From Vezdaea acicularis (lineage: Eukaryota): DNA of 49,670 nt. Positions 8,323 through 12,655 of this stretch are shown here, piece after piece (position 1 is the first letter of the stretch; the number at the start of each line of letters is the position of its first letter). Both the position numbers and the translations under genes were made by a program. The DNA lies in contig JAPEUI010000116.1 in assembly GCA_026025075.1 (NCBI GenBank), forward strand, positions 1 through 49,670. Reading direction: 5' to 3'. The notes beneath the pieces are model-generated. The model saw only the letters and a program-made list of their open reading frames with translations. It was not told the DNA's origin and made no database searches.

Positions 8323-9331
8323 GTGCGGCTGCCGGCGTGGCTGAAATCTCCGTAGCCGGAAGATCCATCGTGGGTGGCGCTGGGAAGGGTTTCTTGATAG
8401 CGTCCTGAATATTTACGATTCCTTTGTTGGGGCCAGCAATGCAGCCTGAGAGAAGTTCGTTAGATATGGACCAGCTCCTACGATTATATTCATATACATA
8501 CCTCTCAACACTACGATCCCCTTCTCTTCGTCAGTTGACAATATCTCTACATTTTGCACAGTGACTCGTTGGCCGCCCATCCGCCCGGCCATCTTCTTGC
8601 CTGGATATACCCTAGATCCGCCACCTTGCGACTGCCCTGCGGAGCCCATCGCCCTATGTGTGAGGGATACACCATGACTTGCTGGTTGTCCCTTAAATCC
8701 GTGCCTTTTCATACCCTAGGATAATTGTCAGCTATCATCTTGCAATCGAATTGGACACACTTACTCCTGCGAAACCCTTTCCCTTACAATTGGCTCTCGC
8801 ATCAACATATTGACCAACCTGAAACCAACTTGGTGTGATGATCTTCCCAATCTTCAAAAGCCCCCGTTCGTCTTTGACCCTGAATTCCGAAACATGTCGT
8901 TTAGGGCTGACTTTATGCTTAGTGAAGTGGCCCAGCTGCGGCCTCGTCACATTGCTGGGATGCTTCCATCCACACCCTACTTGTACCGCATAATAGCCAT
9001 GTTCCTTCACCGTCTTATGCGAAACGACCTGAACCCGATCAAGCTGCACGACTGTACAAGGTGTGCGTTTTCCAGTTTCAGGGTCGTAGACTGCTGTCAT
9101 ACCCTTCTTGATTGCAAGGGCCCCCGTACGGAGCGGTAGGCTTTTGGCTTTCCGCTCGAGCGCAGCAGCTTGGCTTGCTCCAAGAATCGACGGACCACTG
9201 TCATTGTAGCGCTCAGGGCCGCGACCATGAAGGGATTGAATGCGCCTCTTCAGTATTCGAGGGAGAAGAAATTCAGGGATAAGAACAGTTGGACGCATTC
9301 TCAAACACTGTCGTCCGATATTGTGGGGCAT
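8318..9331 (-). CDS. MRPL9: mitochondrial large-subunit ribosomal protein uL3m
   Basis: Exons 9331-8765, 8715-8502, 8445-8318. L3 motifs [51 protein letters not shown]; basic N-terminal presequence. Confidence 0.95.
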
Positions 9332-9841
9332 CTTTGTTCAACGCGATGCTGCTCTGAAGCTAAAAATCATGAAATCCTTTGGTTGTCGCCGAACGCCAAA
9401 CGTTGCGCTAGTCTAAAATGGGTCATCATACTACACAAGTTAAGACCTCTTCACAACCTTGCTCTTTCTAAACGAATAGTTGGTATATCTAATATGATTC
9501 TTAATCTAGAGCTTATTTAATTCTAATTTATACGACGTCCTTTTTCGTATTTATTTCGTAATCGAAGAATTTGTATTTTTTTTGAGCCCCCAACGTGTCA
9601 AGATTTACCCATAACCTCCTCGTGTTCGACGAGAGCCACAAACAGGGAACAATCAGCGTAAAACACATGTGCAGAGGGCGAATTTGGGAAACGCTAGTTG
9701 TTTAGAAAGTAATCAAGACCTCACGCCCAAAGTTTCCATGCAGAAACCCCAAGTTGAACCTGGTTTGGATGCCAAGTCTAGCTTTACACCTAGTAATTGG
9801 CGCTACGTTTCACATGGATCTTGAAGTCGAATGATAATCAT

Positions 9842-10786
9842 CTACATAAAGTCCTCCTCAAAATCAGGATTGCGATCCTCGTTGCTGGTTTGCGCTAGAT
9901 TTTCCTCGGTGAAAACTTCATCATAGGCATGATCCCTCTGCCAGGCTTTCTCCCTTCTCTCCTTCGCAATCCTCGCCTCCTCCTTTTGCTGCACTGATCG
10001 TTAGACGGGCAAACCGTAGATTTCAGGCAAACTTACTCTTTCTCTTTGAGCACCTCTATCCCTTTCTCTTATTTCCTTTAAGTGCGCCTCCTTTTCTTGT
10101 CGAAGATCCGGGAACTTTTCAAGCTTAGTCTTATTAAGCCTATTGACGATCGGATTTTCTCGTTGCGGTACTAATATCTTCTTGACCTATAGGATGTAAA
10201 TAAGGTCTCAGTGTTTGTCGTCCGAGGACTTGTACCTTCTTTTGGTCATGGAATCCGACTTGGCCAACAGCCATACTGCCATCTTTCTTCAGATTCGACC
10301 ACGGTGTATATATGATAGTCTGGTTGTCTTTTTTGTTCCCTATAGGAATCCATGAGCATTTTTAAGCGTCGCTGAAAGCCGTATCCTACCTTCAATTGAA
10401 TTCGCCTTTGTCAATTGGGCACAATCTGTCAATAGTTCAGGAGGTATTGCGTCCCAGCCACTTCCCTCGTTCATTCGTAGGTATATGTGTGCGCTCGAAA
10501 GCTTGTCGACATGGAACTAGTCATAATCATCAGCGTAAGAGTACAAGGCTGGCACACGTCGATGACATACCCTGCAATAAATTAGCACTCGTGGTTGTGC
10601 AGCATGCTGAGCTTCATATGTACCAGACATCCTCCTCCCATCCGTGCTCGATCAGCTCCTCGTCTGTCCCGGCGTCACCTTGCAATCCCAATTACCACAT
10701 TGGAACAGCTTACTCTCAACTTTATCCTTGCCGACATAGATGAATGCGGCAGGGGTCACAGTGTTTGAGGAAAAGTAATACACCAT
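9842..10786 (-). CDS. CCDC25: CCDC25/Jlp2-like NFACT-R (DUF814) coiled-coil protein; 6 introns, includes a 1-nt exon
   Basis: Hand-spliced: [52 protein letters not shown]...[43 protein letters not shown]...NRLNKTK...DFEEDFM*. Exon 1 10786-10714, exon 2 10663-10624, exon 3 10571, exon 4 from 10516, three further introns. Absent from the ORF track because the exons are short. Confidence 0.93.
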
Positions 10787-11638
10787 TCTGGCAAGCTGGG
10801 AACTAGCCTTGACCCGCGTCTGGAGTTGGGGTAAAAGTGTGGTTCAGCTAGGCGTGGGATGTTTGCTTCGGTTTGCTTTAAAGATCCGAGGAGATCATCA
10901 TAAGCGCTGGGGCTTGAATCACCAGTATTCGAAAGTATATAGTCGTAATTGACTAACACAACATATCTACTATCCTTTGGGATCTACTGCTCGTGCCCTG
11001 CAAGCGTCTGCGACCACCCGACGTTCAAGACTGTCTGTTACCCGCACATATGCGTAGATCTCACAATACCTTTCGCAATGACTTTGTCTACTGAACGAAG
11101 CCGCAGAGCTCGGAGCTAGAGAGTTGTAAAGTCAGAAAGGAATCGTGACGCGAAGAAGTCCTATCATGTGTATCAATTGCTCCATACATAATTCAGGCTT
11201 TTCTACGTTAGATCAGGGCGCAAACAGATAAAAGTATATAGCACACCAAGGAGTCTAGCAAAGAGGGACTTCGACATGGATAGCTTAAGCGAAGTACCTC
11301 CATATCAAGGCTTAATGAGGGGATACCTTTGGATTGTCGCCTGCCTCGGCTAGTGGGGGCCATCACATAGGGTTTTGCAAGAGGGCTGGAACGACTAAGC
11401 CTGGTGACCAGCTAAACGCGATAGGCTTGTATTTAGGAAATGGGAAGATGAGCAAGTCAATTGAGATACTTCATACGCAATGAAACGTGGGACATTTAAT
11501 GCTCGTGTGTTCTGCTCATGAGGCCCCCCACCGTCACACCGCAACCCTTACAATCCCTATGCTCTACCTGTTCCAATCCTGCCAGTAACTCCAGACCCTC
11601 CCATATCATTGCTTCTTCAGCAAGCGAACTCGTGAGAT

Positions 11639-12032
11639 CTACTCGACAGGCATCTTCTCACCGTCCGCCTCTCCACTGGTGACTGCCTTCCCGGTCTTCT
11701 TGATCTTCTCCAGTACGGTCGCATAGGTGAGGGAATCTTCGGCGTCGATAGTTGCGGTCTGGTCTTCAAGAGAGACGGTGTAGGACTTAACACCTAGACA
11801 AAGAGTAGGATGTCAGCTTGTTACTTGATCACCATGGAGCAGTCGAAATAGAGAGATGCGGGGTTGCGGGGTTGCAGAGCAAGAGGAGTCAGGCAAAAGT
11901 GGAAGGTCCAGTAAGGCTCCTTCACTGCCAGTGGAGAATCATACCATCAAGCTTCTTGAGGACACGTTCAACGGCCCCGGAGCAGCCACCGCAGGACATG
12001 GTAACATTGAACTTGTACTGGTGCTCTGCCAT
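11639..12032 (-). CDS. ATX1: copper metallochaperone Atx1 (HMA domain)
   Basis: MAEHQYKFNVTMSCGGCSGAVERVLKKLD-G-VKSYTVSLEDQ...LEKIKKTGK; MxCxxC and KKTGK motifs; intron 11944-11794. Confidence 0.95.
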
Positions 12033-12655
12033 TTCAAGCTGTGTAGTGTATTTGAAGAGGCGAGAATGAGGACGACGTGTACTCTATGAGACAGAAGTTG
12101 TAGGGGTCTTATTGAAATAAAGTAACATATCTACATTCCACCGTGGTGGTGGAATGGGCCGAGTTTATATTGTGGTAGGGGTGCGCGACTTGTGCGGCTT
12201 CTCCGTAAGCAATGGAATGTTCTTCCTAGCGGCAAATGTTCGCTTACCTGTTCCTGCTGGAAATGCAGTTGGGCAAATACATCTAGGCGCCTTTTGTATG
12301 ATCGACAAAGATATTCTCAAGCAGTTACTGGTAGGACACAAAGCAACAAGAACAAAGCAATAAGGACAAAGCTTTTCAACGTATAACTAAGGTTGGGCCC
12401 GATCTCACATGTAGAAGCCTATAATACAATATATGGATCATTCAAGGTTATCACAAGAGATGAAGATAAGACACAGAAGATCAATTGATTTATCAAATAC
12501 ATCTACGCTATCATGGGCACATGAAATGAAAGTATACAGTACAAACATCGAATCTTTACACAGAAGGGCGGTGAGTCGTAAACTCGTAAGGTGGGGTATG
12601 CGATCCGGCAGGACGAACGCCAAGCAAAGCTATCCCTTTCCATAAACGAAACTCT

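Follow-up and report, generated by a model that had tools for sequence, protein, structure and literature searches.

One-nucleotide exons have been published for Arabidopsis APC11 (PMC4674806), for the P450 gene CYP621A of Fusarium (PMC12940212) and for Coprinopsis cinerea (PMC12230235). The authors of the CYP621A study counted their exon as the second of its kind and the first known from a fungus (Nelson & Syed 2026, PMC12940212), and the long-read annotation of Coprinopsis cinerea contains thirteen exons of 1 nucleotide (nt), whose omission breaks gene models (PMC12230235). Here we describe a lone G at position 10571 that very probably forms such an exon in the predicted CCDC25 gene of a contig labelled Vezdaea acicularis. 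The window, meaning the whole stretch of DNA analysed, comprises the 49,670 nt of contig JAPEUI010000116.1 (assembly GCA_026025075.1), and the gene lies on its minus strand. Splice sites lying directly against each other are also known from recursive splicing, in which AG/GT ratchet points of Drosophila and vertebrates act as zero-length exons within very long introns and nothing is retained. A further related arrangement is the stwintron, in which a splice signal of an external intron (donor, branch point or acceptor) is split by an internal intron, so that the external one comes into being only once the internal one has been spliced out (PMC5587772).

The lone G and the reading frame

From its sequence, the gene is a CCDC25 (NFACT-R domain) ortholog of a lichen-associated ascomycete, and the label of the contig corresponds to Pezizomycotina, leotiomyceta incertae sedis, Vezdaeales. 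Coordinates read off the sequence gave a seven-exon gene between 9842 and 10786, with a predicted coding sequence of 642 nt for a protein of 213 amino acids (aa). At the junction in question the minus strand reads GAT GTC TG / intron A, gtacat...gctaatttattgcag / G / intron B, gtatgt...cgctgatgattatgactag / TTC CAT GTC GAC AAG CTT TCG AGC, where the TTC begins at 10516. Introns A and B are each complete: both start with a GT donor and finish with a YAG acceptor, and both have a branch-like motif whose spacing is normal for fungi. The motif of intron A is CTAAT at 10585-10581, its branch A lying 10 nt from the 3' end, while that of intron B is CTGAT at 10533-10529, with the branch A 13 nt from the 3' end.

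The family to which the gene belongs was determined with Pfam and with solved structures. Exon 4 alone matched PF05670 (NFACT-R_1) above the curated cutoff (E 1e-9), and the orthologs scored 114-116 bits over profile positions 1-112. With Val-Trp at the junction, 112 residues fill the 112-position profile, and forms with Val-Trp scored 10.3-10.4 bits above otherwise identical forms without it. The ortholog P0241 matched the solved CCDC25 chains 7eof, 8woh and 7eoe with E about 1e-64, and in these alignments EDIWFH is placed against the fungal EDIWFHADKLSSAH. The motif at the junction is thus one of CCDC25/NFACT-R, the family that the first-pass annotation, made without database searches, had named as CCDC25/DUF814.

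To compare the ways in which the junction can be spliced, six models were rebuilt by joining exons from their coordinates and were scored against a hidden Markov model (HMM) of 119 full-length orthologs. Removal of both introns with the G kept gave 642 nt and 213 aa with no internal stop, at 409.4 bits. Retention of intron A led to a stop at codon 41 (73.5 bits) and retention of intron B to a stop at codon 56 (73.0 bits), while a single intron from the GT at 10623 to the AG at 10517, skipping the G, left 641 nt in which the frame shifts and ends in a stop at codon 53 (67.8 bits). An in-frame donor, GTCTGG at 10628, joined to the acceptor at 10517 gave 211 aa without Val-Trp (393.6 bits), and a non-canonical intron from TA at 10622 to AG at 10517 gave an mRNA identical to that of the one-nucleotide-exon model, hence again 409.4 bits. 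The deposited protein of this contig, P0001 (204 aa), scored 356.9 bits. Among canonical GT-AG choices, only the one-nucleotide-exon model yields the full 213 aa, and the others end in frameshift, premature stop or loss of Val-Trp; without G10571 the frame shifts into a stop, and with it the HMM score is the best.

These results agree with the first-pass annotation on the layout and coordinates of both introns and of G10571, to the base, and on the premature stops that follow when A is retained, when B is retained or when the G is lost. Its statement that only removal of A, retention of G and removal of B restores the protein holds among canonical GT-AG introns, and needs amending in two respects: the TA-AG intron produces the same mRNA, and the GTCTGG donor also keeps the frame, for a protein lacking Val-Trp.

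The junction in related fungi

To see how the junction is built elsewhere, a metagenome collection was searched with an alignment of orthologs. Out of 534 relatives found, the 80 best loci were retained and, together with the window, classified as 81 sequences. No intervening sequence separates TGG from TTY in 44 of the 81. The layout TG/GT...AG/G/GT...AG/TTY was found in 32 (31 loci and the window), which represent 28 distinct sequences. Two loci, L021 and L025, have a single very short intron straight after TGG, and L003, left unclassified by the script, looks alike by eye. The remaining two, L051 and L058, end at contig ends; the 68 nt available from L058 start with gggtatgag, which is compatible with G/GT.

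Conservation of AG-G-GT across relatives was a check named beforehand, and each of the 32 sequences whose intervening stretch starts in phase 2 contained exactly one AGGGT, with none lacking it. On the A side of the AGGGT the stretch measures 48-194 nt (median 57.5) and on the B side 49-163 nt (median 54.5), sizes that are normal for fungal introns. When the interiors were shuffled, the mean probability of an AGGGT was 0.07 per sequence, and the product over the 28 distinct sequences is ~1e-36, a figure computed over relatives that are not independent trials.

The splice signals were then compared among the 28 distinct sequences. At position -3 of the A acceptor we counted C in 14, T in 10 and A in 4, followed by AG in 28/28, and the lone base is G in 28/28. 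Intron B starts with GT in 28/28 and has G at +5 in 26/28, the same fraction as the intron A donors with G at +5. Each of the 32 sequences has a branch-like motif at 5-26 nt before the internal AG; it fits CTRAY in 22, YTRAY in 9 and only the loosest pattern in 1. The intron bodies diverge, the splice signals being all that is invariant, so that AG-N-GT is conserved in 32/32 amid diverging surroundings. The codon preceding TG is GTT, GTC, GTA or GTG in synonymous variation, or ATA, as expected of coding sequence. This comparative evidence supports an obligatory one-nucleotide exon between complete introns, as had been proposed for the window.

The loci with this layout come from distant lineages. 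L053 shares 94% identity over 127 aa with a protein of Microdochium nivale and falls among Sordariomycete matches; L032 is nearest to Tuber borchii (Pezizomycetes), with 98% over 84 aa; for L046 and L039 the nearest proteins are those of Gloniaceae/Mytilinidiales (76-80%), Glonium being a Dothideomycete. The two-intron layout is therefore present in the DNA of at least Pezizomycetes-, Sordariomycete- and Dothideomycete-like fungi, in addition to the Vezdaea contig. The L032 junction reads ATA TG/gtgagt...tctag/G/gttcgt...ccaag/TTC, and two further introns follow; with ATATGG it has no in-frame GTNTGG donor, yet AG/G/GT is kept. No intron was seen at this site in loci of the EDLIAHGWPED type, which are 96-99% identical to Cladosporium proteins, or in those of the KYAWPQD type, a type seen in basidiomycete-labelled proteins.

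The single intron of L003 (about 1466-1500), L021 (1466-1500) and L025 (about 477-512) is a phase-0 intron of 34-36 nt at the position of intron B, and the motif upstream of it is of the GLP(Q/H/Y)D type. Judged from its position, this intron could be the ancestral state or the product of losing intron A alone. An atlas search with these three loci returned generic CCDC25 clusters with animal taxa only.

Gene models, uninterrupted reading frames and rival explanations

Three protein searches returned 343 proteins, from which 203 full-length ones (at least 195 aa, with a canonical N-terminus) were taken. The junction D[VIL]W-FH is read by 118 of the 203. Exactly Val-Trp is missing from 50, the solution that uses a GTNTGG donor, and 35 are otherwise wrong at the junction, for example through WY-F or WW-F insertions, partial read-through of an intron or skipping of exon 2. 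Junction errors thus amount to 85/203 (42%), the deposited model of this contig included, which bears out the earlier expectation that automatic annotation goes wrong across the family. According to the source columns as read, all 85 wrong proteins carry an NCBI source and an organism name, and all 50 Val-Trp-less proteins are NCBI gene models. The models of all five named Tuber species are wrong at the junction, each differently. In the deposited Vezdaea acicularis protein P0001, exon 2 (10663-10624) is skipped and a 14-nt pseudo-exon, made of G10571 and the start of intron B, is used instead, so that it reads KVE-RYVID-FHVD. Val-Trp is present in some deposited models while models of neighbouring species lack it, which means that for some species the correct product is already in the databases, whatever the exon tables say.

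A model lacking exactly Val-Trp arises only if intervening sequence follows GTNTGG, and such models therefore mark a probable two-intron layout. On this basis, which is one of models and not of genomes, the layout is probably also present in Sphaerosporella, Wilcoxina, Terfezia and Trichoglossum (Geoglossomycetes), as well as in Lophium, Glonium, Cenococcum and many Sordariomycetes including Verticillium.

Several other models deserve mention. P0197, P0229, P0230, P0297 and P0203 (214 aa) have one extra residue, reading VWY-F or VWW-F; such models likely stem from a second GT within a GTATGT-type A donor (TGG TAT/GT...), by which one intron suffices to keep the frame, and would be one more way for predictors to get around the junction. 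The partial protein P0211, from a 655-nt contig labelled Phytophthora cactorum, is yet 82% identical to the Sordariomycete-like L053, and P0297, labelled Lyophyllum atratum, which we take to be a basidiomycete, nevertheless bears the ascomycete-type EELIKHGWDEDIW motif. By their sequences, both seem to stem from contigs that contaminate the assemblies concerned.

Proteins without an NCBI source (Logan, JGI or ENA only) were taken as open reading frames (ORFs) called without intron modelling. Val-Trp was present in 38 of the 44 such proteins of at least 195 aa; 4 start within sequence upstream of the Phe, 2 are without the motif, and none is the Val-Trp-less form. All those that cover the junction read VW-F or IW-F. 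Some of the Val-Trp-less models have close counterparts: apart from Val-Trp, no mismatch separates the Glonium stellatum model P0289 (211 aa) from the Logan-only ORF P0290 (213 aa); P0219 of Verticillium dahliae VdLs.17 equals V. dahliae P0220 in the same way, again with 0 mismatches; Cenococcum geophilum P0285 (no Val-Trp) and P0284 (Val-Trp) differ by 1 mismatch; and the pair P0175/P0176 is likewise near-identical and differs at the junction. The ORFs P0241 and P0243, on contigs of 1053 and 936 nt, read KEDIWFHADKLSS; their identity to the Tuber locus L032 is 94-100% in exons 4, 5 and 7 and 82-89% in the first 28 residues. The DNA of L032 holds both introns, whereas the ORF products of these Tuber relatives carry Ile-Trp.

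One further protein of this group, P0244 (197 aa, on a 902-nt JGI contig), is identical to the Tuber melanosporum model P0245 from the Phe onward (175 aa) and runs uninterrupted through the positions of the two downstream introns of L032. Upstream of the Phe it has 22 residues that are not exon 2 and that resemble an in-frame reading of intron B. Its sequence suggests that it may be a partly spliced transcript with intron B retained.

Taken together, these data make it very probable that the lone G10571 is a one-nucleotide exon between two complete short introns, spliced in two reactions, and that the layout is old. Several points weigh against this reading. The splicing of the junction in the window is read from a comparison of DNA, in which the 32 two-intron sequences are related by descent and hence are not independent trials. 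The cDNA-like ORFs matched no locus of the same organism in tblastn, the best being Tuber L032 at about 95%; L067 does equal P0227, but P0227 is a genomic ORF that starts inside intron B. The A donor of the window, GTACAT, is the sole one of the 28 with A at +5, all the others having G or C there. This last point is eased by the GTACAA donor of another intron of the same gene, and donors without G at +5 seem to be tolerated in this fungus. Finally, mature mRNA gives no clue as to whether the G stems from 10571 or from 10623, and 10571 is preferred for one reason, the conservation of AG/G/GT.

This ambiguity leaves room for a single-step alternative, in which one non-canonical intron runs from TA at 10622 to AG at 10517, so that G10623 completes the Trp codon and the AG-G-GT inside has no role. 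The product is the same 213 aa, so neither mature transcript nor protein can discriminate it. Such an intron, however, would have to begin with TA, or in relatives with TG, throughout all lineages, and it would leave unexplained both the sole AGGGT in 32/32 sequences (28 distinct), against about 0.07 expected in each, and the branch-like motif 5-26 nt before the internal AG in all of them; we consider it highly improbable. A main splice from the GTCTGG donor at 10628 to the acceptor at 10517 is canonical, stays in frame with 211 aa and is what the predictors chose for 50/203 full-length proteins. Yet 0/44 proteins without an NCBI source are Val-Trp-less, and three Val-Trp-less models have Val-Trp counterparts at 0-1 mismatches, two of which are Logan-only ORFs. 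The shortened form scores lower by 10.3-10.4 bits in Pfam and by 15.8 bits against the ortholog HMM, and conservation of Val/Ile-Trp extends to the solved CCDC25 chains. In addition, L032 (ATATGG) has no such donor but retains AG/G/GT, and the Val codon varies synonymously like coding sequence. The Val-Trp-less isoform may occur as a minor product; as the main product it is contradicted by these sequence comparisons, and we regard it as very unlikely.

Since the window contig comes from a metagenome-assembled genome, a G lost at an outer splice site through an assembly or sequencing error, or a decaying pseudogene, had also to be considered. An error in this contig is unable to explain the layout, because the same AG/G/GT occurs in 31 other, independently assembled loci, and the rest of the gene is intact, with 213 aa and no stop, which reduces this explanation to a negligible one. 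The one-nucleotide exon could also be real and at the same time serve as a regulated switch, its skipping (TG/TTC) sending the mRNA to nonsense-mediated decay (NMD), as the first-pass annotation suggested. The skipped form does stop at codon 53, upstream of three more exon junctions, and the Tuber-like P0244 would fit slow or incomplete splicing in the region. However, an mRNA that gains an early stop through faulty splicing would be degraded in any case, with no regulation involved, and the arrangement is dispensable, both introns being absent in 44/81 sequences; we see very little likelihood of such a switch. Two named arrangements were rejected on the primary sequence. Donor, branch motif and acceptor of both introns are intact, and neither intron interrupts a splice signal of the other, which by definition (PMC5587772) sets the locus apart from the stwintrons to which the first-pass annotation had likened it. 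Neither is the site a recursive splice site with a zero-length exon, as AG and GT stand one G apart in 28/28 and this G is required by the frame.

The features of the gene are collected in Table 1. Two of its six donors, GTACAA (10187-10235) and GTACAT (10572-10623), are without G at +5. The minimum free energy across both introns was -30.9 kcal/mol, whereas shuffled sequences averaged -35.1 (z = +1.2), which gives no indication of a stabilising fold. Rfam gave no match in window positions 8500-12500 on both strands at E up to 0.1, and Pfam gave none for the antisense ORF 10366-10743(+) or the ORFs 9140-9520(+) and 10756-10983(-). The next upstream same-strand ORF fragment, at window positions 11639-11812 (-), matched the heavy-metal-associated domain HMA (PF00403) with E 3.7e-5, at 24.5 bits against a curated cutoff of 24.8, and judged by this match may be an exon of a copper-chaperone-like gene.

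Table 1 Features of the CCDC25 gene in the window, from the 5' to the 3' end of the gene
Feature	Positions	Strand	Length (nt)	Remarks
Exon 1	10714..10786	-	73	ATG 10786-10784; end phase 1; residues 1-24 of P0001 match 100%
Intron 1	10664..10713	-	50	gtaagc...gacag; removal required for ortholog-like reading
Exon 2	10624..10663	-	40	3' end is TG of the Trp codon (10625-10624); absent from deposited P0001
GTCTGG, possible in-frame alternative donor	10623..10628	-		Val codon, TG and first G of intron A
Intron A	10572..10623	-	52	donor GTACAT; ttattgcag end; acceptor CAG
One-nucleotide exon (predicted)	10571..10571	-	1	lone G, third base of the conserved Trp codon
Intron B	10517..10570	-	54	donor GTATGT; gactag end; acceptor TAG
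Exon 4	10390..10516	-	127	ends ...ANSIEG; PF05670 match E 1e-9
Intron after exon 4	10340..10389	-	50	gtagga...ctatag
Exon 5	10236..10339	-	104	
Intron after exon 5	10187..10235	-	49	donor GTACAA
Exon 6	10037..10186	-	150	
Intron after exon 6	9989..10036	-	48	gtaagt...CTAAC...gtgcag
Exon 7	9842..9988	-	147	including stop TAG 9844-9842

Proposed mechanism and comparison with known systems

If G10571 is an exon of its own, the Trp codon would be split three ways, TG ending exon 2, the G standing alone and TTC opening the next exon. The two introns would be removed in separate reactions by intron definition, and either order would join TG, G and TTC: removal of A first would leave ...TGG/GTATGT with an ordinary donor, and removal of B first ...TTGCAG/GTTC with an ordinary acceptor. 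Because a single base lies between the acceptor of intron A and the donor of intron B, spliceosomes would hardly act on both simultaneously, and the reactions would probably be sequential; the footprints of spliceosomes underlie the mutual exclusion that is expected at neighbouring sites. The process would resemble recursive splicing at an AG/GT ratchet point, with one base kept. Our guess for the window, from its A donor GTACAT as the weakest of the set, is that intron B is removed first.

The arrangement would be old and held by selection, common to Pezizomycetes (Tuber) and several classes of leotiomyceta, with both introns lost in many lineages. A stronger statement can be made, namely that this is the most widely conserved one-nucleotide exon known, that it predates the split between Pezizomycetes and the other filamentous ascomycetes and that it has been kept purely by selection on two sets of splice signals; here we find the case for and the case against evenly balanced. 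If such an ancient origin is true, differential loss, of both introns or of the upstream one only, would be a source of change in intron position. Loss of the upstream intron alone would leave a phase-0 intron one base from the phase-2 position, a stwintron-independent route to one-nucleotide 'intron sliding', and the locus, its sites being one base apart, would naturally report on spliceosome assembly that is ordered and mutually exclusive.

The locus bears on three fields. In annotation, the signature of a phase-2 donor and a phase-0 acceptor with one AGGGT between them could repair gene models and find further cases. For splicing mechanics, 3' and 5' splice sites one base apart in many lineages are a natural substrate for studying the packing and order of splicing events. 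For intron evolution, three states exist at one site (two introns, none, and one phase-0 intron), so that shifts of an intron by one nucleotide and the concerted loss of introns can be tested directly in real genomes. A literature search whose scope left out most subscription journals and the Fusarium and Coprinopsis supplements found no description of the CCDC25 one-nucleotide exon. Single-nucleotide exons as such are less rare than the first-pass annotation had it, now that fungal cases have been published (PMC12940212, PMC12230235).

Among the systems described, two that share the close spacing of splice sites differ from the CCDC25 locus in what is retained. The [D1,2]/[A2,3] stwintrons (Fekete et al. 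2017, PMC5587772) consist of adjoining short U2 introns whose consecutive removal by intron definition is as proposed here, and loss of one at the DNA level would shift the intron position by one nucleotide, as it would here. In stwintrons, however, the two alternative internal introns have one G in common (AGT) and no base is kept (PMC5587772), whereas at the CCDC25 locus both introns are complete, one G stands between them (AG-G-GT), and this G would stay in the mRNA. Recursive splicing likewise has a 3' splice site directly before a 5' splice site and joins the upstream exon to the start of the next intron. The CCDC25 locus is unlike it in keeping one base and in having two introns of only about 50 nt each.

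The published one-nucleotide exons stand nearer. That of Arabidopsis APC11 is constitutive, has both flanking introns spliced and was mis-annotated in GenBank (Guo & Liu 2015, PMC4674806); it differs in belonging to a plant gene and in having been proved with green fluorescent protein fusions and reverse transcription polymerase chain reaction (PMC4674806). The thirteen cases of Coprinopsis show that fungal spliceosomes handle 1-nt exons genome-wide (PMC12230235). Coprinopsis is a basidiomycete, however, and the basidiomycete-like CCDC25 loci (KYAWPQD type) are intronless at this site. The closest counterpart is CYP621A, which like CCDC25 has a fungal lone G between short GT-AG introns with an identical AGGGT core, and whose G likewise restores the frame in a conserved motif, was missed by annotation pipelines and is conserved among orthologs (PMC12940212). 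The CYP621A junction is covered by reads from the Sequence Read Archive (SRA), while the CCDC25 window is known from DNA alone. CYP621A has 20 orthologs in Fusarium/Nectria and is rarely expressed (PMC12940212), whereas the CCDC25 exon extends over several classes of Pezizomycotina and sits in a widely conserved single-domain gene. The CCDC25 case is a further one-nucleotide exon, unusually widespread, and not a new kind of element.

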